From a virus (Duplodnaviria > Heunggongvirae > Uroviricota > Caudoviricetes): a stretch of DNA of 48,410 bases. Position numbers and translations under genes: made by a program. This document shows, one piece after another, positions 2,826-13,519 of the stretch. The stretch lies in the IMG/VR virus record IMGVR_UViG_2531839667_000010, positions 1 to 48,410 of that record. One strand, given 5' to 3'. The notes under the pieces are model-generated. The model was not told where the DNA came from and searched no databases. It saw only the letters and a program-made list of their open reading frames with translations. How positions within the stretch are numbered: position 1 is the stretch's first letter; the number at the start of each line of letters is the position of its first letter.

Positions 2826-3044
2826 ATGCGTATTGAAATCTGCATAGCCAAAGAAAAAATGACTAAAATGCCAACCGGTGCTGTGGATGCGTTAAAGGAA
2901 GAATTAACCCGACGCATCAGTAAACGTTATGACGATGTAGAGGTGATCGTAAAAGCCACCAGCAACGATGGCCTTTCTGTTACACGCACCGCAGATAAGG
3001 ATTCTGCAAAAACTTTTGGGGTATTCGGGATAAGTAGTTGTTGA
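2826..3044 (+). pseudogene. dinI: DinI-like protein, 5' portion, interrupted by an IS after codon 64
   Basis: [31 protein letters not shown] resembles the DinI N-terminus as I recall it; the frame runs into IS sequence at 3019 and ends with unrelated residues. Confidence 0.7.
3011..3018. repeat. Target-site duplication (left copy), AACTTTTG
   Basis: Identical 8-mer directly flanks the IS at 5679-5686. Confidence 0.65.
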
Positions 3045-3095
3045 AAACCTTTTGATAAGATCTGCAATTCATTTTTATAGACGGTGAAAGTTGTT

Positions 3096-3123
3096 GTTGA
3101 CCTCCTGATCGGATTCCTATACT
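3096..3123 (+). promoter_or_regulatory. Putative sigma-70 promoter inside the IS
   Basis: GTTGAC(C) then TATACT; spacer 15-16 nt, so sub-optimal. About 250 nt upstream of the ORF6N gene. Confidence 0.3.
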
Positions 3124-3369
3124 GTTTGTCTCACGAGGCGTAGAAACCTCTCCAAAAGCGGTCCGAACCAACCCCGATAGTGTTGGATTTTTTATGCCTG
3201 TTATTCAGTGATTGCACTGTATGCGGTCACACCCCGATCAATGTCGGGAGGGCGACGAATACAACACCCAGCGATGGGGAATAAGTTCGCGGTATCTTTT
3301 GGGCCGTTTCTAACCTCCCGACACCCACTTATGTGGATTTCCGTAGAAAGAAACCAAAAGAGGTCAGTC

Positions 3370-4262
3370 ATGACTAACCATTCTCCAGTAGAAAGCCTGC
3401 CAGTTGTTACCTATAACAGCCTCCCGGTGATCACCACCGAACTGCTGGCAAAACTCTACAATACCGAACCCAAATACATTCAAACCAACACGGCGCGTAA
3501 TGAATCACGTTTCGTTGCTGGAAAGCACTTCTTTAAACTGGAAGGCACTGAATAAAAGACTTTAAGAACAGACCATCTTCAAGAGGGTTAGTTGGTTCTC
3601 GCGCTCGTAGCCTTGTTCTCTGGACGGAGCGCGGTGCCGCTCGCCACGCCAAAATGCTCGAAACCGATCAGGCGTGGGAAGTGTTCGAAAAGCTGGAAGA
3701 CTTCTATTTTAGCCAGAAGGAAAAGGCCGAGCAGATTCGTAAGAATCGCCAGTGTACAGCTACCCAGCTTATCCCGCTGCGCCAAACGGCAGAACGGTTA
3801 ATCACGACAGGCCTCGGCAAAATCTATCCCGACATATGGAAGCTGGTTCATCAGCGCTTCGATGTTGAGCATATCCACCAGTTGCAGCCTGAGCAGGTCG
3901 GTGAAGCCATCGAGTATCTGAACGTGCTGGAAGGTGAGTACCTGGGGCGCGAGACGCTTCCGGCAACCCCATCAGTGCATTTCACCAACGAGGAGCTTTG
4001 CGCTCTCTGCTGGGTATGGAATGCCGCCGAATACATGCGGGAGAAGATAGAGCTGGCCTATCCCGCAATGAAAACTCTCAAGTCTGAATACGCACCGAGC
4101 TTCTACTCAATGGCATTTGAGTATCAGCGAACACTGGAAGCCGGTAGAAAGGTTCTCGAACGGGAAACAAAACACATCGTTCCGCATCCTCACAGCGTGT
4201 CAGATGAAAACTGGCGGCGAGTCCTGCCTCGTCTGCGCCAAAATAGCTTACCTCGCGGATAA
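3370..4262 (+). pseudogene. ORF6N-domain (antirepressor-type) protein gene with a frameshift near 3550
   Basis: N-terminal frame (ATG 3370, GAGG Shine-Dalgarno) ends FFKLEGTE at TAA 3553-3555; a second frame continues ...SLVLWTERGAARHAKMLETDQAWEVFEKLEDFYF to 4262, matching my recollection of the ORF6N family; consistent with loss of one T at ctgaa-t-aaaag. Confidence 0.55.
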
Positions 4263-4276
4263 TAAGGGACAAAACG

Positions 4277-5599
4277 ATGAGCGAGATTGCACCAACGAGC
4301 CTGTTACACCCTCTGAAAGCTACCGTTCTGGATTTTCAGGAGGATGAGCACGACTATCAGTTCAAGGTTGAATACCCGGAGCCGACCTGCTGCCATGCCT
4401 GCGGTGCAGTGTCTGACATCATCCGCTTTAACAAAAAGCTGGTGAAGTACCGGGATGTTCCCATGCACGGGAAGCGCGTCACGCTCTGGGTCGTAACACG
4501 CCGTTATCAGTGCAAATCATGCAAAGGCACATTCACCCCGGCCATCCCCGAGATGGCCGAAGCCCACCGCATGACAAAGCGCTGCTATCAGTACATCATT
4601 AAACGTGCGCTGACCGGCACTAACGCCAGCGTCGCGCAAGATGTTGGCTTTGATGAGTCCGTCACCCGTGGGGTCATCAAGTCCTACTGCGAGCAAAAGG
4701 CGAAGACCTATAAGCCTGTGCTGCCGCGAGTGCTGGGCATTGATGAGCTGTACCTGAACAAAACCTTCCGCTGTGTCCTGACCAACATCGAGCAGGGAAC
4801 CATTATTGACATACTGGAATCCCGGCAAAGTAACGTCATCTACAACCGTCTGGCGCATATGGAAGGCCGTGAGAACGTGCAGATCGTCTGTCAGGATATG
4901 TGGAAGCCATACCGTGACGTTGCCAGCCAGCTATTCCCTAAAGCCAGCATCGTCGTTGACCGCTTCCATATCCAGCGCATGGCTAACGAGGCGATGGAAA
5001 TGCTGCGTAAGTCGCTCAAAAAGGATCTGACAGTACACCACCGACGGCAGCTTAAAGGCGACCGTAAGATGATGTTGATGCGTAAGCGTGACCTTAACCC
5101 TATGCAGCAGATGATTATCGAAACGTGGCTGGATCACTATCCTGAGTTGGGTCTGGCCTATCAGCTCAAGGAAGAGTTCTTTGATATCTGGCTGGCACAG
5201 ACTGAACCTGAGGCCAGAATGCGCTATCAGAACTGGCTGGCAAAGATACCCGAGCATCATAAAAAGCACTGGAAGCCGCTGATAACATCCATGACGAACT
5301 GGGAGAAAGAGATATTCGCCTACTTCGGCCCGGCCCAGCGGAAGACCAACGCCTTTACGGAATCCATCAACCGCAAGATGCGCGATCTGAACCGTGATTC
5401 GCGCGGAATGTCCTTTGAGATGTTCAGGGCTAAAACACTGTTCACTCTCAAGCATAAGTTCAGCAAGCCTAAACCAGTGAAAGAATCACCGTTCACGGTT
5501 GGCTATGTCACCGCTGGTTCGTGGGATCTGGATGATGAAATCCGGGACGATTACGGCGTATCTATCGACGCTATTCTGGAATCCAAAATCGGCGAATAA
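4277..5599 (+). CDS. ISL3-family transposase
   Basis: 440 aa; N-terminal zinc-finger/HTH pattern (CCHACG ... [10 protein letters not shown]) typical of ISL3 transposases; sits between ISL3-like terminal repeats with an 8-bp duplication. Confidence 0.75.
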
Positions 5600-5678
5600 A
5601 TAGCCGCCAACAACACACCCATCATTTTCCATTTAACGGGGTTCGGGATGTCCTAACAACAGGATTTCCCGAATACCC

Positions 5679-5686
5679 AACTTTTG
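5679..5686. repeat. Target-site duplication (right copy), AACTTTTG
   Basis: Identical to 3011-3018. Confidence 0.65.
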
Positions 5687-5742
5687 TTCAGGAGACTCTG
5701 AAAGATACCTGGGAATCTGCTGACGAGTGGTTTGTTCACTAA
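5687..5742 (+). pseudogene. dinI: DinI-like protein, displaced 3' end
   Basis: Joining 3018 to 5687 gives ...[23 protein letters not shown]-stop, resembling the conserved DinI C-terminus. Confidence 0.6.
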
Positions 5743-5885
5743 TTAACACGTAAAATCGGTAACGGCTGGAAATCATTCAATACTCGCACTATCGAAAGTT
5801 CGCCAGCCAGCCGCAGCACGTTCTTGCATACGACGTGGCTGCGGCTTCCAACATTAGACAAATAACTCTTTAAATTGCTTTTAAA

Positions 5886-6449
5886 TTATTTCGTTTGAAT
5901 GCCAGTAACAGGAAATCGTTTATATAGGGTTGATAGCCCAACGTTATAGATACGTGCAACATAACGCCGTGATTTCCCTGCCGCTATGAGCGCTCCCATC
6001 TGTTGCCACTGCTCGTCGCTAAACTTCGGTCTACGCCCACCAATCCGGCCTTTGGATCTGGCAATAGCCAAACCAGCTAAAGTTCGCTCGCTATTCAAAT
6101 CAGATTCATACTGCGCAGCAGAAAGAATATTACGGAAATTATAGCGACCACTTGCTGTTTTCAGGTCTACGCCATCTGTAATACTGCGGAAGTTGATACC
6201 CTTTTCCTGTAACTGCTGGAACATCAACAGCGCATGCAGAACGTTGCGGCCTATCCTGTCCAGCTTCCAGACCACCAGTTCATCCCCCGGCTGCATAGTG
6301 GCGATCAGCCGTTTTAGAACCGGCCGATTCGATTTCCTCCCGCTGGCATGCTCTTCAAAAATTTTCTCACAACCCGCTGACTTGAGCGCCGTTAGTTGCA
6401 ATTCAGTGTCCTGGTGGTTTGTTGATACTCGGGCATAACCGTAAATCAT
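5886..6449 (-). CDS. Serine recombinase / DNA invertase (Pin/Gin/Hin family)
   Basis: 187 aa from MIYGYARVSTNHQDTELQ (catalytic Ser region) with a C-terminal HTH; AGGAG Shine-Dalgarno. The listed 278-aa ORF is an upstream over-extension. Confidence 0.85.
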   Translation of the reverse strand: MIYGYARVSTNHQDTELQLTALKSAGCEKIFEEHASGRKSNRPVLKRLIATMQPGDELVVWKLDRIGRNVLHALLMFQQLQEKGINFRSITDGVDLKTASGRYNFRNILSAAQYESDLNSERTLAGLAIARSKGRIGGRRPKFSDEQWQQMGALIAAGKSRRYVARIYNVGLSTLYKRFPVTGIQTK

Positions 6450-6501
6450 GGGATTTCTCCTGTTATGAAAACAGGAGAAACGGCGAAGCATCACCAGATT
6501 T

Positions 6502-6972
6502 TTGATGGTTATAAAAAAGGTTGGTTTGGGAGAAGGCTCTGCATTACCTGTTGGTGTCCCTGTTCCGTGGCCTTCAGCTACGCCGCCAACAGGCTGGCTG
6601 AAATGCAATGGCGCTGCCTTTGATAAGGTTAAATATCCCCGTCTTGCTACAGCATATCCATCAGGGAAACTACCTGATCTCCGCGGTGAGTTTATTCGTG
6701 GCTGGGATGATGGGCGCAGCATTGATACAGGGCGTGCTTTATTGAGTATTCAGAGTGATGAAGTCAGAAAGCTCGCATTAAAATACTGGGGACCAGCTTC
6801 AAACAGTTCACCATCAAAAACATTTGCACTCAGCGACAGTGCCGGTGGCGGGTTGTACACGGATGGAATAAGTCAGGCAAGCGGTGGGATTATCAACGCT
6901 TTTCAGCTCCCTGGCGGTAACGAAACCCGCCCACGAAATGTTGCATTTAACTATATCGTGAGGGCTGCATAA
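6502..6972 (+). CDS. Alternative tail-fibre C-terminal cassette, currently in the silent orientation
   Basis: No ATG (the frame opens after TGA 6466-6468); carries the conserved tail-fibre C-terminal motif PWPSATPPTGWLKCNGAAF...DLRGEFIRGWDDGR; preceded by a crossover site that shares reading phase with the expressed fibre. Confidence 0.6.
   Translation: MMVIKKVGLGEGSALPVGVPVPWPSATPPTGWLKCNGAAFDKVKYPRLATAYPSGKLPDLRGEFIRGWDDGRSIDTGRALLSIQSDEVRKLALKYWGPASNSSPSKTFALSDSAGGGLYTDGISQASGGIINAFQLPGGNETRPRNVAFNYIVRAA
6509..6534. other. Invertase crossover site (hix/gix-like), left
   Basis: TTATAAAAAAGGTTGGTTTGGGAGAA; its reverse complement TTCTCCCAAACCAACCTTTTTTATAA resembles hix and shares 14 bp with the right site. 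Confidence 0.6.
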
Positions 6973-7574
6973 TGGATAATGCTGTATTAAATAGCGAGTT
7001 TATTGCCACGAAGGCGGGGAGTATTACCGTCTATAACTATGATAGTGAAACACGGGAATATATTTCCACGTCAACTGAATATCTTGCTGTGGGTGTCGGT
7101 ATTCCGGCATGTTCCTGTCTTGATGCACCTGGCATACATAAGGTTGGTTATGCAATCTGTCGTTCTGTGAATTTAAATTCATGGGAATATGTGCCAGACC
7201 ATCGCGGTGAAATCGTCTATAGCACCGAAACAGGAGAATCAAAAGAAATCACAGCTCCGGGTGATTACCCTGAAAATACAACCACTATCGCCCCTTTATC
7301 TCCATACGATAAATGGGATGGTGAGAAATGGGTGACCGATACTGAGGCACAGCATAGCGCCGCAGTAGACGCGGCAGAAGCACAGCGCCAGTCACTGATT
7401 GATGCTGCTATGGCTTCCATCAGTCTGATTCAACTGAAATTGCAGGCCGGACGGAAACTGACGCAGGCAGAAACAACCCGACTTAACGCCGTGCTGGATT
7501 ACACTGACGCGGTGACGGCAACAGATACCAGCACCGCGCCGGATGTCATCTGGCCTGAACTGCCGGCGGCGTAG
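6972..7574 (+). CDS. Tail fibre assembly protein (partner of the silent cassette)
   Basis: 200 aa; C-terminal ...LNAVLDYTDAVTATDTSTAPDVIWPELPAA pattern typical of Tfa chaperones; immediately follows the alternative fibre cassette. Confidence 0.7.
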   Translation: MDNAVLNSEFIATKAGSITVYNYDSETREYISTSTEYLAVGVGIPACSCLDAPGIHKVGYAICRSVNLNSWEYVPDHRGEIVYSTETGESKEITAPGDYPENTTTIAPLSPYDKWDGEKWVTDTEAQHSAAVDAAEAQRQSLIDAAMASISLIQLKLQAGRKLTQAETTRLNAVLDYTDAVTATDTSTAPDVIWPELPAA

Positions 7575-7998
7575 GCCATTTAATATCTGGCGCACCGGAA
7601 GTATCGACCAGTTCCAGTGCGTCCAGATAATCCAGCCACAGATTATATTGCGCCAGTTCCTCGCCTTTCAGACGACCAATAGCCGCTTTACCAGGCCATT
7701 GTTTACTGTTCATATAATCGTTGGCCTGATTAATTAGTAGCTGTCTTTCTGATTCAGTAATTTCAATAAGTTCTTCATGCGTAGGGGCAGGAATATCCGC
7801 CCACGCGGGCAGCCCATCACCTCCGGCAATACGGATTTTTCCTTGTGGCGGTTCAGCCATAAATTCACTGATAATATTTTGACTCACCTCCTTAGCATCT
7901 GATAAATCCCATCCCTCTGATTTATATTTATCAATCATATCCACAGGGAAAAAAGCATTATGCCTTGCGCTATAAACATATTCGTTCATATAAATCAT
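7546..7998 (-). CDS. Tail fibre assembly protein (expressed orientation)
   Basis: 150 aa; C-terminal ...LDYLDALELVDTSGAPDIKWPTPPAV Tfa motif; convergent with the other tfa, as in invertible G/C-segment systems. Confidence 0.7.
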   Translation of the reverse strand: MIYMNEYVYSARHNAFFPVDMIDKYKSEGWDLSDAKEVSQNIISEFMAEPPQGKIRIAGGDGLPAWADIPAPTHEELIEITESERQLLINQANDYMNSKQWPGKAAIGRLKGEELAQYNLWLDYLDALELVDTSGAPDIKWPTPPAVQAR

Positions 7999-8009
7999 CC
8001 TGAATAAAA

Positions 8010-8858
8010 TTATTCACCAACAGCCCACCAACTGTAAATCATTGACACCTTGTCGCTGGTTGATGCAGTTCTGTAAGCAGAATTAAAGCCGGTTAATGTT
8101 GGGCCTTCTACGGACATAACGAATCCACGCCCTGCACCAAAAGGCGCACCGCCATCGCCAGAATGGGTAAGAATGGCGATATCCGCTTTTTTAGGGAAAG
8201 GGATAGGAAATGTAATCCTCATTGTTTGCGTCGATAATTTCGGCATAGCCTCACCTCGACCATATTGCAGGATTTTCCCGTTGGGTAATTTCATCCATCC
8301 ATCACCACTGGCAAACGAGGCCATGTCCGGTATCTGATTTTCCCCTGTCCCCACATTCCGTTTTGCCGCTTCTCCCAAACCAAGGTTTGTGCGAGCGTCT
8401 GCGGCATTCGTTGCGCCGGTTCCGCCGTCTGCGACAGTAACCGCACCGTTGCTCCCTTTCTGCGCAAGTTTACCGATGCCAGGGATGGTTACGGTGGTCC
8501 CGTTGATGGTAACTGTGATGCTTTGGTTTGCTGAGGTAGTGGCGAACGTCTCCCACGCGCCAATGTTCTCGTCATACTCTTTGATGAGCTGCGACATTGC
8601 CTGGGCCAGTCCGTCCACGGAGATAATGTCTGACACCAGAATGGCGTATTTCTGGCCGCTCAGCGCCGGGGAAGCGGCAGGCGTAACCGTCATTGACGTG
8701 GCGCTGTTCACGGATGAAATCTGGAACAGTTGCACCGGGTTAGACATCACGATAATTGTCTGCCCAGCGCGAACCTGGCTGGCGGGAGCTGTCCAGTTTG
8801 TGCCGGAGCCGGTTGCGGTATTTCCTTTAATAGAGATAGTTCCGGTGCTATAAATCAT
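8010..8858 (-). CDS. Side tail fibre protein (constant N-terminal part fused to the currently selected variable C-terminus)
   Basis: 282 aa; a crossover site lies in-frame at 8370-8395 (encoding ...TNLGLGE...). Confidence 0.8.
8370..8395. other. Invertase crossover site (hix/gix-like), right, inside the tail fibre gene
   Basis: TTCTCCCAAACCAAGGTTTGTGCGAG; inverted relative to the left site; same codon phase (GLGE) in both contexts. Confidence 0.6.
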
Positions 8859-8935
8859 AACAACTCCTAAATTTAGACAACATGAAGCCCGGAGAGGTAT
8901 ATAACCATCACCAGAAATAATTTCTGAATTGGTTT

Positions 8936-9238
8936 TTAATACATGTTGGGCAACGCCAGTGTTGGCATAGCTATAGTTGTATCAAATGCCATTGACCACC
9001 CACCCCAATAATAATTGCCGACTACTTTATTCCTTTCCGCTATGACATTCCCACCTGTCATTACAATTCCTTTATACCTAATATTTCCGTAACCACCAAC
9101 GTGTCGACAGTTAGCCCCGGTATAAACAATCTGGCAAAATTCATCACCAATATTCAGGTTCGCATTGTCGATATTTATTGTCCCATCAAAAATGAATGGC
9201 TTCGTGCAAGTAAGAAGACGTTTGCGTTGACGATTGGT
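8936..9238 (-). pseudogene. Start-less remnant of a tail-fibre/tailspike-like gene
   Basis: About 100 open codons with no start codon between stops, encoding ...GTINIDNANLNIGDEF...GGNVIAERNKVVGNYYWGGW..., a repetitive beta-rich pattern. Confidence 0.3.
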
Positions 9239-9363: not shown

Positions 9364-9597
9364 ATGAAACTCGCTCTAATTATGCTGCCATTATGTCTGT
9401 CCCTCACTGCATGTGGTAATGGTTTAAATACCGGTAAACCAAATTCCGGTGTCATTCCAAAACCTTTGGATCGAGATGGTAACGGTTCTTTAATTTATGA
9501 TACCGAAAACCTTCCAATGACGGGGCAGTGGTGTCACGAGATTGATCACGAATACCGACGAATCGGTAGCCCTTCTAACTGTGTTATAGACTACTAA
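9364..9597 (+). CDS. Small lipoprotein, Cor-like superinfection-exclusion candidate
   Basis: 77 aa with signal peptide and lipobox LTAC; strong AAGGAG Shine-Dalgarno; antisense to the tail operon just downstream of J, where cor sits in phi80/N15/HK022-type phages as I recall. Confidence 0.5.
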   Translation: MKLALIMLPLCLSLTACGNGLNTGKPNSGVIPKPLDRDGNGSLIYDTENLPMTGQWCHEIDHEYRRIGSPSNCVIDY

Positions 9598-9600
9598 ATA

Positions 9601-9630
9601 TTAACCCCTCAAAAGAGGGGTTAATATTTT
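9601..9630. terminator. Bidirectional rho-independent terminator between cor and J
   Basis: Perfect 10-bp stem ttaacccctc/gaggggttaa, loop aaaa, T/A runs on both sides. Confidence 0.55.
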
Positions 9631-12600
9631 AACCTGTGAATGAACCAGATCCGTGTGATACTATGACAGTAGGCGAATAAATGGACGCGCCCCTGTTATT
9701 TTGAGCGGACACTTTAATACGTACTGTTACGTTTGGACCTGTTACAACAGCAGAATGCATAATAAGTCTCTCCACGTCTTGCACAGATGAACCACTCTCA
9801 TTGCCGTTAATATTGATTAGTCCTGCACCATTACCTTTAACGTTTGCTATAACACAGACGTGTCTTGCGTGCCCAGAACTGGATGAATCCTTATAAGTTA
9901 TTACCTTTTCTAAAAGGCCGTCACTAGACCGACTAACGTCAGTTCCGGTGTGCATATTTGCAATGTCCCCGATAAAACTTTGGGCTTCCACAGTCCCTTT
10001 GAATTTACCGCTTGTTGCTTGTATCTCACCAGTAAATCTACCGCCACTAGCATATACTACACCTCTGACGGTCACATTGTTGAATTCAGCATCTCCAGCT
10101 TTATTCAACTTCCAACCAGCAGAACCAGCTGCATAGTTGTTGGACTGGATATAGTTGCCGATTTTTGCGTTCTCAATGGTGCCGTCCTGGATGAAGCTGG
10201 CCCGGATGAATGTCTGTCCATTCTGGATCACAAACGGCAAAGCCACGCTATTTCCGGCTGCCGTGGTGACGGCGAAGCGATCAGCCAGGAAGATAACCTG
10301 CGACTGCATGCCGGATGGCGTATTCTCCACGCCGATACCCATCCCCGCGGCGTAATACTGACCGTTGCTGGAAACGCCAACCTTGATGTTGTACATCGCG
10401 CTGAGGTCGCCATTAACGTTTGCTATCGCCTGAGCGTTAGTGGTGATGGCGGAGGTATGCCCGTTCACGGTCGCCGTAATGCCGTTTATCTGCGTGGCCG
10501 TAGCCTGCTGATAGTCGGAGAACGTCTGATTCAGGCTGTTTATGGATGCCTTGTTGCCGTTGACATCCGTCTGCAGGCTCAGCAGAGAACGCGCCGTTGC
10601 CTCCTTCTCGTTAACGATTACCTCATCAATACGATCCAGCTGCGCACTGTTCCCTGCGACCGAAGCTGACAACGATTTACGCGTAGCCACTTGTGCCAGC
10701 CCGTTCTGGATAATTGCGATAGCAGAGTTCTTCACCCCGCCCGTCATGCCGTCCATAGACACGCTGATGCTGTCGATTCGCTGGCCCAGTGCGGTATCAG
10801 CAGTCGCAACAGTCTGCTCAAGATCTGAGAGAGAAGACGACACATCACCGACCGTGCTAGAAAGCTCATTAACGCTGGTCTGAACCTGCCCGATGTCCTG
10901 CGCGTTTTTTGCGATTTCCTGCGCCTGGAGTTCAAGTTCATCGTTGGCCTGTTTGATGTCGTCAGCCATGCCAGCAATTTTTTCATTGCTGTCCACAGCG
11001 TTCTCGATCAGGTCTTTGAACGTCTCAGACCCTTTGATGTCTTCAAGGATCACATCTGTGATGTCAGAAACATCGATACTGGCCTGCCCACGAACCCAGC
11101 TGGTATAACCTGACTCGTTACCGCTGCGGTCAACCAGCTGCGCGCGGTACCAGAAAATCTGCCCCGCTTTAAGGCCCATCTGCTGATATTTGCGCTGCGG
11201 GTAAGGCACATCGGCCAGCAGCATGGCATCGTCTTCAGTACCGGTCAGGCTGTACTGAATTTCCGTCTTCAGCGTGTCGTCGGTATTCGCCTGGAATCCC
11301 CAGTTCAGCTCGATACCGAACACCACGTTTTCAGAGGCGATAAAGCCAACCGGCTTCGGTGGATTGCCCACTTTACCCGTCAGCGTTTTCTCTTCTGAAT
11401 AGCCCCATCCGGATGAAATTTCTGCGGCATTGATTGCGCGCACCCGCACCAGGTAGCGCCCGGCATAAATCCCCGGGACGTCGAATGACGTGGTGGAGGT
11501 GCGCGGCACGTTAACCCAGTTCCCGTCGTTGCGGCGCCATTGCGCTTCATAGGCGATAGCGTTCTGCGCCTGGTCCCAGCTCACGCGCATTGTTTCGACG
11601 CTGATATTTTGCTGAACCACGGAAAACGAGCTGATCACGATATTCGCAGGCGGCGACTGGTTGCCCGGCGGGATCACGCTCACCGGCCGTTGGTCAATGA
11701 TGGCACCGGTATCGATACGCGCATATTTATCCGGATCGTGCAAAGCGCCAGCAATCGAATACGTTCCGTCATTATTATCCGTAACGCTGATAACGCGATA
11801 TTGCTGCGCGTAAAGCTCTTCAGACTCGACAATCCACACCGATTCCACTGCAGGTGTTTCGCTGTATGCCGTTGTCACAGTGACGGCCCGCCCGTTTACG
11901 CTCTGTATCGTCCTGCTCTGCGATGCGCCGGACGGAAGGTTAACCATCAGACGGCTTCCGGGAGCGGCTGCCGAATCACGATCAAGCGTGATAACGCGAC
12001 CGTTAACCGCGCTGATGCGCCCTCCCATCACTTTTCCGGAAAGCAGCTCATCGGCAACCGCGATGATATAACCAGGCTGTGGGATCTTACCGTCAAGACC
12101 AACATCGAACGACACGATGCGATCCTTGTTATTGGTCAGGATACCCCAACGTCCTTTGCGGTTTGCCTCTGACTGCCGGGTACAACCAATGGCTGTCATT
12201 TCGAGCTGATTTGTGCCAAAGCGAGCAACGAGATCCTGCTCAAATACAGGCTCCATCGCATCCGCGTAGGCATTACCCGGATCGGACCAGGAAACCAGTG
12301 CCGTGGTATAGCGGGTTTTGGTGGTGCTGCCCGAATAGGTAAAGCGCCCATTAACCACGTTTGCACGCGTGTAGCTGTAATCCACATCGCGGGGCATATC
12401 CGCCAGCGCAACGATTTGATCGCCACCCCAGTACGTCATGCCCCGGAATATCGCCGCAAAATCACGTAACACGGTATAGGCGTCATTCCTCTCCTGCACG
12501 TACACGTTACAGGTATAGCGAGGCTCAGTGCCGCTACCGCCTTTACCATCAGGAACCGGCTGATCGCAATATTGCGCGACCTGATAAAGCGTCCATTTAT

Positions 12601-13519
12601 CAATATTGGCCGCCGTCAGGCGATTGCCCAGCCCAAAGCGGTCGCTCACCACCAGATCGTAAAAAATCCAGGCTGGATTATCCGTCCACGCCCACTTAAA
12701 CGCCCCTGTCCATGTGCCGCTGTAGGTGCGGGTCTCCGGGTCATACGTATCCGGAACGCGGATTACACGCCCTCGCGGTTCGCAGGATATTTGCGGGATA
12801 GAGCCGTTAAACTGGCTTGAGTCGAATTCGATGTACAGCAGCGCGGTATTTGGATAACGCAGTTTGGCGTCAATAACCTCTGTGTAGCTCTGCAGCGTCA
12901 TCGTGTCGCCAATTTTCGCGCTGTTGGCATCCGCCGTAAGCTTACGCAGGCGCACCGTCCATGTACTGCCTGCCTGTGGTAAATCGATACGATGGCTGCG
13001 TTCGTAGCCGGAAGTTGTCTTGCCGGTTACGCTGGTATTAAGTACCGTCTGCCAGGTGCCGCCATCGGTCTGCAGATCAATAGCGTAGTTAATTGAATAG
13101 CCAACCAGATCGCCATCATCCTCCTGTTTAAAAAGCGATGGCCACTTGAGGCGCAGGCGAACGGCTGACAGTTGCGTGTTGGTAAAGGTATGTGTCCAGC
13201 CGGTGGTGCTTGACACTTCGGTGCCCACGCTGATTTCATTTTCTGTGCCGGGGATACCCTGAATATATTTTTGTGCCTGAGTCCCCGGACGAAATTCCCA
13301 CGCCACGCCACTGAAGTTTTGCGATCCGTCTGCATTCTCCAGTGGCGTGCCATCGAGATAGATATCCTTCGCCGTCAACTGCCCTGCAAATTCGCCCTCT
13401 CCCAGTGCAACAAGAATTTTGGCTTTCGCTACGGACTGGAGATCGTCTGGTTGTTCAGTCGGGGTGCGTGAACTGGAGCTGCCGCCCTTGCGGCCTCTAA
13501 TCGGAGTAGATGTAGCCAT
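9629..13519 (-). CDS. J: Tail tip / host-specificity protein J
   Basis: 1296 aa; recalled lambda J motifs (YCDQPVPDG...TEPRYTCNVY); position after tail assembly protein I. Confidence 0.9.
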   Translation of the reverse strand: MATSTPIRGRKGGSSSSRTPTEQPDDLQSVAKAKILVALGEGEFAGQLTAKDIYLDGTPLENADGSQNFSGVAWEFRPGTQAQKYIQGIPGTENEISVGTEVSSTTGWTHTFTNTQLSAVRLRLKWPSLFKQEDDGDLVGYSINYAIDLQTDGGTWQTVLNTSVTGKTTSGYERSHRIDLPQAGSTWTVRLRKLTADANSAKIGDTMTLQSYTEVIDAKLRYPNTALLYIEFDSSQFNGSIPQISCEPRGRVIRVPDTYDPETRTYSGTWTGAFKWAWTDNPAWIFYDLVVSDRFGLGNRLTAANIDKWTLYQVAQYCDQPVPDGKGGSGTEPRYTCNVYVQERNDAYTVLRDFAAIFRGMTYWGGDQIVALADMPRDVDYSYTRANVVNGRFTYSGSTTKTRYTTALVSWSDPGNAYADAMEPVFEQDLVARFGTNQLEMTAIGCTRQSEANRKGRWGILTNNKDRIVSFDVGLDGKIPQPGYIIAVADELLSGKVMGGRISAVNGRVITLDRDSAAAPGSRLMVNLPSGASQSRTIQSVNGRAVTVTTAYSETPAVESVWIVESEELYAQQYRVISVTDNNDGTYSIAGALHDPDKYARIDTGAIIDQRPVSVIPPGNQSPPANIVISSFSVVQQNISVETMRVSWDQAQNAIAYEAQWRRNDGNWVNVPRTSTTSFDVPGIYAGRYLVRVRAINAAEISSGWGYSEEKTLTGKVGNPPKPVGFIASENVVFGIELNWGFQANTDDTLKTEIQYSLTGTEDDAMLLADVPYPQRKYQQMGLKAGQIFWYRAQLVDRSGNESGYTSWVRGQASIDVSDITDVILEDIKGSETFKDLIENAVDSNEKIAGMADDIKQANDELELQAQEIAKNAQDIGQVQTSVNELSSTVGDVSSSLSDLEQTVATADTALGQRIDSISVSMDGMTGGVKNSAIAIIQNGLAQVATRKSLSASVAGNSAQLDRIDEVIVNEKEATARSLLSLQTDVNGNKASINSLNQTFSDYQQATATQINGITATVNGHTSAITTNAQAIANVNGDLSAMYNIKVGVSSNGQYYAAGMGIGVENTPSGMQSQVIFLADRFAVTTAAGNSVALPFVIQNGQTFIRASFIQDGTIENAKIGNYIQSNNYAAGSAGWKLNKAGDAEFNNVTVRGVVYASGGRFTGEIQATSGKFKGTVEAQSFIGDIANMHTGTDVSRSSDGLLEKVITYKDSSSSGHARHVCVIANVKGNGAGLININGNESGSSVQDVERLIMHSAVVTGPNVTVRIKVSAQNNRGASIYSPTVIVSHGSGSFTG

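Follow-up and report, generated by a model that had tools for sequence, protein, structure and literature searches.

The DNA analyzed here (referred to as the window) comprises the 48,410 nt of the IMG/VR virus record IMGVR_UViG_2531839667_000010, a sequence identical to contig AFAF02000002.1 of the NCBI assembly GCA_000194665.2. It contains a lambdoid prophage inserted beside dusA, and the tail fibre locus of this prophage at positions 5,886 to 8,858 very probably constitutes a site-specific inversion switch of the kind represented by the G segment of Mu, the C segment of P1, and the P segment of e14. We assign it to this kind because both orientations of the segment occur in relatives, where they are broken at the crossover sites. 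While the kind of switch is known, the system is new as a complete switch on an HK97-like side fibre with an uncharacterised invertase of the phi80 PinL type. This grouping is operational and denotes enzymes with approximately 80% or more identity to phi80 PinL, the helix E motif GRYNFRNILSAAQYESDLNSERT, and a leader hairpin that sequesters the Shine-Dalgarno (SD) sequence; all three features were found for the window invertase. An earlier note on this DNA had proposed a serine invertase beside a segment bounded by inverted 26-bp sites at 6509–6534 and 8370–8395, and each of these elements was recovered at these positions.

The constant part of the fibre and the invertase are encoded outside the segment and in the same direction, and two convergent cassettes, each comprising a tip and a chaperone, are located inside (Table 1). 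The two sites are in inverted orientation and agree at 19 of 26 positions, with the inner 12-nt half-site and the 2-nt core being identical; both cores read AA on the site strand. As read on the window strand, the proximal site is TTATAAAAAAGGTTGGTTTGGGAGAA, and it lies 60 nt upstream of the invertase start. With one mismatch allowed, the 14-mer TTCTCCCAAACCAA (inner half-site plus core) matched exactly two positions in the whole window, on opposite strands, and the number of sites remained two when up to two mismatches were permitted. The number of 14-mer matches expected by chance was 0.03 and none of 100 shuffled sequences contained two or more, which led us to reject a chance inverted repeat. 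A shufflon or other multi-site system, such as Min of p15B or the three-site P2-like arrangement, was likewise rejected based on the presence of two site matches only. Consistent with a unit delimited by the sites, matches of the window to other genomes ended at 6516–6521 and 8386–8391, and the segment by itself was 99.4–99.7% identical in many Escherichia coli genomes.

The fibre gene (8010–8858, minus strand, 282 amino acids) crosses the distal site in frame with the residues TNLGLGE (amino acids 157–163), and the constant part plus the site-encoded residues make up 163 amino acids common to both fibre forms. From the proximal site on, the silent cassette encodes VGLGEGSALP... in the phase of the fibre. 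Both frames had been predicted in the earlier note and were reproduced here: an in-silico exchange at the 2-nt cores left both sites unchanged, kept the frame, and generated an uninterrupted fibre of 308 amino acids, which has the same first 163 residues and in which the 119-residue gp53-like tip is replaced by the 145-residue collar tip. The proposal that each cassette has its own chaperone also agreed with our data, as both chaperone genes encode Caudo_TAP proteins and overlap by 29 nt at their 3' ends. The open reading frames (ORFs) of both cassettes and of both chaperones are intact. For the chaperone of the expressed cassette, the ATG at 7989 called in the source assembly is preceded by AGGA 8 nt upstream, and an alternative ATG is present at 7998. 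The layout, the in-silico flip, and the inverted relatives described below thus bear out the suggestion that inversion swaps tip and chaperone as in the Mu G segment. The statement that the silent cassette has no start codon holds for the cassette itself but not for its surroundings, because an in-frame ATG at 6505 (and a TTG at 6502) in the flank just outside the proximal site opens a 155-residue ORF across the cassette. Gene callers list this ORF as a gene; its product would have no constant fibre part, and no SD sequence was found upstream of the ATG at 6505. Proteins with the architecture of the flipped fibre were common in a protein database search. Its full-length, collar-tipped homologues include the tail fibres of HK97 and HK106 (75% identity, 100% coverage), which to our knowledge are encoded by a fixed gene without an invertase.

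The same pair of cassettes was found in both orientations in P2-like prophages of E. coli O157:H7. O157:H7 BB24-1 and 2-6-2 agree at 100% in the flanks (4,020 and 4,015 nt) and at 99.95% in the segment (1,866 nt), which is nevertheless inverted, with alignments that overlap by 15–18 nt inside the sites. The H fibres are in frame in both orientations (473 and 499 amino acids), and the prophage has the same two tips and chaperones as the window in a segment that is 99.4–99.7% identical to that of the window. This pair is a natural inversion of the window's own cassette pair by a classical Pin-type invertase. It differs from the window in its constant part (354 amino acids, P2 H-type), in its outer half-sites, and in the invertase, which is 86% identical to PinE and 54.5% identical to the window enzyme. 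In BB24-1 (5495–6916), RefSeq splits the fibre gene into a “gp53-like” coding sequence and an “incomplete phage tail protein”. A frame problem in this gp53 orientation, suspected from the RefSeq split, was rejected, as the ORF of 473 amino acids is continuous. Automated annotation hence mishandles one orientation of such switches. The literature documents comparable inversions of prophage tail fibres well (PMC4272514, PMC5903667, PMC9881135), and for e14 and P2-like prophages they were detected directly in sequencing reads and by polymerase chain reaction (PMC4272514).

Both orientations were also found among loci that have a PinL-type invertase, and the expectation that both occur in nature was therefore borne out by the O157:H7 cassettes as well as by lambdoid relatives. 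E. coli 730V1 and the Logan contig L014 contain approximately 90% identical lambdoid relatives with a PinL-type invertase, in which the genes from J to the invertase are arranged as in the window and the segments are inverted relative to both flanks; the breakpoints of 730V1 map to window positions 6521–6535 and 8369–8383. A proximal site identical over 27 nt was present in 23 IMG/VR contigs, and the end abutting it was the gp53 end in 13 and the collar end in 10 of them. Scanning the GTDB species-representative genomes for the exact 27-nt site gave no matches and was uninformative. Among 25 PinL-type loci with both sites the orientations were split 14 to 11, and both orientations occurred within groups of loci whose flanks are 99.5–100% identical.

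Table 1 Features of the tail fibre switch in the window (positions refer to the window).
Feature	Position	Strand	Remarks
Serine DNA invertase	5886–6449	−	187 amino acids; phi80 PinL type; catalytic Ser9; Pfam Resolvase (E 3.3e-38) and HTH_7
Two adjacent RNA hairpins in the invertase leader	6453–6495	−	12-bp stem 6453–6481; 5-bp stem 6482–6495
Invertase-proximal 26-bp site	6509–6534	−	TTCTCCCAAACC-AA-CCTTTTTTATAA on minus strand; core dinucleotide 6521–6522
Invertible segment	6523–8381		1,859 bp separating the two core dinucleotides
Silent tip (Sv')	6535–6972	+	145 amino acids; phage tail collar domain; Pfam Collar (E 9e-15)
Chaperone of silent cassette (Tfa')	6972–7574	+	200 amino acids; Pfam Caudo_TAP (E 2.3e-32)
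Chaperone of expressed cassette (Tfa)	7546–7989	−	147 amino acids; Pfam Caudo_TAP (E 3.8e-30)
Expressed tip (Sv)	8010–8369	−	119 amino acids; gp53-like C-terminal domain; Pfam Gp53-like_C (E 2.9e-11)
Distal 26-bp site inside the fibre gene	8370–8395	+	TTCTCCCAAACC-AA-GGTTTGTGCGAG; core 8382–8383; encodes ...TNLGLGE
Constant N-terminal fibre part (Sc)	8396–8858	−	SD sequence AGGAG upstream of ATG 8858

The closest described system is the P segment of e14 (taken from the MG1655 genome), for which inversion has been shown experimentally (PMC4272514). Its 14-nt inner half-site plus core, TTCTCCCAAACCAA, is identical to that of the window, and by inspection its fibre-side site agrees with the window distal site at 23 of 26 positions and its pin-proximal site with the window proximal site at 22 of 26. 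The layout is also the same, with a constant fibre part, a tip plus Tfa, a convergent Tfa plus tip, and an invertase, and with a segment of approximately 1.8 kb. The cassettes are related to different degrees: Tfa' of the window is 90.5% identical to TfaE of e14 and Sv' is 53.5% identical to StfE, the C-terminal half of the window Tfa is 67% identical to TfaP, and the gp53-like tip had no detectable match to the C-terminus of StfP. Further differences concern the tail module, which is of the baseplate type in e14, whereas the fibre of the window is a short, HK97-like side fibre whose gene lies downstream of that for a lambda-J-type tip protein (1,296 amino acids, 9629–13519). The invertase of the window is unlike PinE, with 57% identity, another helix E, Ala153, no pair of Fis-like sites at +29/+77, and a leader hairpin.

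In Mu (NC_000929) the gene order is as in the window, with Sc, Sv and U, the convergent U' and Sv', and an invertase on the fibre strand. The 26-bp sites of Mu are located at the annotated G segment boundaries, and the window invertase is Gin-like. However, the gix site of Mu, TTATCCAAAACC-TC-GGTTTACAGGAA, differs from the window sites in core and half-sites, the G segment is longer (3 kb compared to 1.86 kb), and the cassettes of Mu showed no similarity to those of the window at a blastp E value of 1e-3. The C segment of P1 with the invertase Cin is the same kind of switch. Phage phi80 (Lula), with its pinL gene, shares with the window the type of proximal site, the leader hairpin, and the lambdoid setting downstream of a J-type gene. 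In contrast to the window, where both sites, both cassettes, and both chaperones are intact, phi80 (JX871397.1) has only one crossover site left (3505–3530) and a pseudogene fragment of a collar domain, and its system is a relic that is unable to invert.

The best solved relative of the window invertase is Gin (3UJ3), which aligned over residues 1–181 with an E value of 1e-58, compared to 1e-23 for gamma-delta resolvase. The window enzyme and phi80 PinL share 90% of their residues, including all of the first 128, and identity to the enzyme of a prophage in E. coli EC2001 is also 90%. The identity of the window enzyme to Gin is 50.8%, to PinE of e14 57.1%, and to the O157 enzyme 54.5%, whereas these three are 77–86% identical among themselves. 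Ser9, Arg7, Asp64, Arg65, and Arg68 are conserved, and the catalytic residues as well as the helix E motif were invariant in 120 relatives. This motif differs from the Gin/Pin motif GRFFFHVMGALAEMERELI(I/V)ERT at 14 of 23 positions. With a ratio of nonsynonymous to synonymous substitution rates (dN/dS) of 0.11, the invertase is under purifying selection. PinL-type enzymes are widespread in prophages of Enterobacterales and were found in Escherichia, Salmonella, Citrobacter, Enterobacter, Klebsiella, Serratia, and Morganella. The gene in the window is recombinant: its nucleotides 1–270 match, at 100% identity, the allele that E. coli 730V1 and ES8 carry beside yciI, and its nucleotides 271–510 match, again at 100%, the allele of the dusA prophage in EC2001. 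In the subfamily, the DNA-binding domain forms a mosaic module, of which there are at least four sequence types. One and the same invertase allele beside yciI is combined with lambdoid (TipJ), YmfQ/baseplate-J, and DUF2612 tail modules.

Following the established chemistry of small serine invertases, dimers of the window enzyme would bind the two sites, form a synapse, and cleave at the AA/TT 2-bp cores. Half-sites would then be exchanged by a 180-degree rotation of subunits, and the matching AA cores would permit religation in the inverted configuration, so that the 1,859-bp segment flips. A population of lysogens would release two types of virions, with either the gp53-like or the collar tip, and the chaperone of the respective cassette would fold the tip. 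If these types differ in receptor specificity, the switch may serve as bet-hedging and broaden the host range. Output of the invertase is probably throttled by the larger of the leader hairpins. The 12-bp stem encloses the SD sequence AGGAG of the invertase gene, and the 5-bp hairpin upstream of it carries a T-rich tail. The predicted minimum free energy of the leader was −24.6 kcal/mol (z-score −5.1; none of 200 shuffled sequences was equally stable), and the structure was flagged as terminator-like. The hairpin was present, in two sequence variants, in all eight PinL-type loci examined and is annotated as IR3 in the phi80 record, but it has no counterpart in Mu gin, e14 pinE, or the O157 invertase gene. 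Possible roles are a limitation of invertase synthesis or the termination of transcripts that read through from the fibre operon. A sigma-70 scan gave no convincing promoter for either the invertase or the fibre gene (10 sites compared to 7.5 expected).

Several observations weigh against the assignment to the Mu G, P1 C and e14 P kind of switch. The proximal site has a weak outer half-site, TTATAAAAAAGG, and phi80 with its single remaining site demonstrates that such systems decay. Furthermore, no isogenic pair differing by the inversion alone was found among the PinL-type loci, although the all-against-all comparison of the 25 loci had almost no power, as cassette content was common to only 1 of 300 pairs. 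This single content-sharing pair had the same orientation, and from the number of inverted pairs (zero) no conclusion was drawn. When 601-nt queries spanning the as-is and flipped junctions were searched in complete E. coli genomes, neither form of the right junction gave a match with high identity and at least 80% coverage. Both forms of the left junction were seen beside PinL-type invertases, but with different cassette content, and the alternative right junctions of the ES8 and 730V1 loci inverted in silico never reached 80% coverage. Among 5.8 billion proteins, the best match to the flipped fusion fibre was 89% identical and none was 100% identical. According to this protein search, the exact alternate fibre form of the window prophage is not yet sequenced. 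Because of the lack of both an isogenic pair and a 100% identical flipped fibre, we infer flipping by a PinL-type invertase rather than observe it.

The remaining contrary observations concern Fis. In known systems, a recombinational enhancer of 65 bp with a Fis site at each end is located in the 5' part of the invertase gene, approximately 100 bp from one crossover site (PMC3798978). We used a simple Fis-consensus score for pairs spaced by 48 bp, an ad hoc measure of degenerate sites that a weak, displaced, or non-canonical enhancer could escape. For gin, pin, and the O157 invertase gene, which served as controls, the best Fis-like pair was always found at +29/+77 with a sum of 17.5–18.5, at a chance rate of about one per 10 kb. 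In contrast, the window scored 7.0 + 4.5 = 11.5 at +29/+77; no canonical pair was found, and none of the pairs in 5886–8900 reached 16.5. PinL-type genes scored 11.5 at these positions and had no conserved alternative pair; likewise, no local suppression of synonymous changes was observed at the +29/+77 position. The contact residues point in the same direction. Gln151, Arg154, and Leu155 of Hin contact Fis and were described as “uniquely conserved among DNA invertases”, and the Hin mutant R154A is nearly inactive in Fis-activated inversion (PMC3798978). The window enzyme has Gln150, Ala153, and Leu154, and thus an alanine in place of Hin Arg154. In a gapless alignment of the subfamily these positions were only 35–53% conserved, and the phi80 type has E/E/R. 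Of the regulatory helix E residues Phe105, Phe106, His107, and Met109 of Hin (PMC4513852), only Phe106 has a retained equivalent in the window enzyme (Asn104, Phe105, Arg106, Ile108, invariant in 120 relatives), so that helix E is altered at Hin positions 105, 107, and 109.

Because the invertase is of the PinL type, activation may not follow the Fis-enhancer route of Hin and Gin. Judged from the sequence, a Fis dependence of the window invertase is doubtful, though not disproved, because of its PinL type, the missing canonical enhancer pair, the alanine at the Fis-contact arginine, and the different helix E; the Fis requirement implied in the earlier note accordingly gained no support. A less probable reading is that the switch works without the Fis/enhancer invertasome, with an enzyme clade that is constitutive or otherwise activated and a rate that is set by the leader hairpins. 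The differently built helix E would hold and release the inactive dimer, using residues that are “hyperactivating” in Hin. The PinL type being 51–57% identical to Gin and PinE, as well as the absence of the enhancer pair, of local synonymous suppression, and of a conserved contact triad, argue for this possibility, as does the restriction of the SD-sequestering hairpin to PinL-type loci. Moreover, an asparagine is invariant at the Hin Phe105 equivalent, and the Hin mutant F105N cleaves independently of Fis; H107Y is likewise Fis-independent (PMC4513852). On the other hand, the degenerate nature of Fis sites and the ad hoc scoring leave room for a weak or displaced enhancer, and the region of the +29 site (VSTN codons) is largely retained, with scores of 7.0–9.0. 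Lys46 and Arg47 of the basic patch on helix B are kept, so that two of the three residues equivalent to the enhancer DNA contacts of Hin (47, 48, and 51) are basic, the third being Ala50; in the subfamily position 50 is mostly alanine, threonine, or glycine. Some members of the subfamily retain the full Q/R/L triad, and with a helix E that is different at 14 of 23 positions, the effects seen for single residues of Hin need not apply to the window enzyme. A search of the literature on pinL revealed neither a report on function nor an experiment on any PinL-type enzyme. Taken together, it is possible, albeit doubtful at present, that the PinL-type clade recombines pix/cix-type sites without a canonical Fis-bound enhancer and that the frequency is set by the hairpin occluding the ribosome-binding site.

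A switch of the Mu G, P1 C and e14 P kind has also to be weighed against a frozen relic. In such a relic the layout would be preserved, but inversion in the window prophage would have ceased through a lack of either expression or activation of the invertase, and the orientations seen in relatives would reflect old events. The lack of an isogenic pair, the sequestered SD sequence, and the missing enhancer would fit such a relic, as would the decayed or orphaned versions in phi80 and E. coli 027_SK3 and the 2.66-kb insertion, containing an insertion sequence (IS), beyond the 3' end of the invertase gene. We consider a relic unlikely, as it is at odds with the purifying selection on an invertase whose catalytic and helix E residues are invariant across Enterobacterales, with two sites that have perfect inner halves and matching cores, with the intact ORFs of both cassettes and chaperones, with the 14 to 11 split of orientations among loci, and with the occurrence of both orientations within groups of nearly identical flanks. 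Alternatively, cassette blocks could have been replaced by homologous or illegitimate recombination between phages, so that the orientation differences among relatives would not be due to flipping by an invertase. Indeed, pairs of PinL-type loci with flanks that are 99.5–100% identical on both sides have interiors that are only 86–95% identical over a third to half of their length, and the invertible segment, delimited by the 26-bp sites, is clearly a hot spot at which the content is replaced as a whole. Replacement accounts for this diversity of content but not for a precise reciprocal inversion, and both processes can coexist. In every comparison the breakpoints fell exactly within the shared 14-nt half-site plus core, and in the O157:H7 pair the same content is simply inverted. 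Hence, we regard replacement as a very improbable explanation of the orientations.

Two further loci with PinL-type or related switches deserve mention. E. coli 2022CK-00450 has a PinL-type locus that is complete except that no distal site was found within two mismatches of the 14-mer (~8100–8200), and this locus may be a locked variant. The lambdoid prophage of E. coli 027_SK3 (NZ_CP067311.1, 3144–5490) contains the constant fibre part (98.4% identity), both sites, and two cassettes, but no adjacent invertase gene; a DinI-like gene comes next. It is an orphan switch that could flip only with an invertase provided in trans.

The surroundings of the switch were compared with E. coli EC2001, to which the host flank is 97.4% identical and in which a prophage that is 88% identical to that of the window occupies the same site and carries the same switch. 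Relative to this prophage, the window contains a 2.66-kb insertion (3019–5678) between the DinI-like gene and the invertase gene, which comprises ORF6N/P22_AR_C antirepressor-like genes (~3208–4262) and an ISL3-family transposase gene (4277–5599); no terminal inverted repeats of the IS were found in this insertion. A DUF6453 gene (8939–9193, minus strand) is located between the fibre gene and J and is kept beside this fibre type. It is absent from the ORF listing, as it has no ATG, GTG, or TTG start, and the RefSeq protein starts with isoleucine. Degradation of this gene was suspected but rejected, since it is intact, 98% identical to the EC2001 copy, and free of frameshifts. On the strand opposite to J and the fibre gene, a gene for a 77-residue lipoprotein (lipobox LTAC; 9364–9629) occupies the place where phi80 and N15 carry Cor, to which it has no similarity. 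A perfect 15-bp inverted repeat (9596–9610 and 9615–9629), which resembles a bidirectional terminator, lies between the end of the lipoprotein gene and the end of J.

Tail fibre inversion switches are textbook biology, and the chief value of our results lies in correct annotation: the ORF at 6505–6972 listed as “phage tail protein” is a silent cassette, and the prophage can probably make two fibre types. The same two tip cassettes serve a P2-type fibre on a contractile tail and an HK97-type side fibre, and these shared cassettes together with the replacement hot spot illustrate that receptor-binding modules move between unrelated tail types. With the PinL-type invertase, nature offers a way to test to what extent recombinases of this class depend on the Fis/enhancer checkpoint. 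Should it prove active in the absence of Fis, it would represent a small invertase that is deregulated by nature and recombines sites already studied in detail, and it would be of use in studies of the mechanism and as a compact inversion tool.

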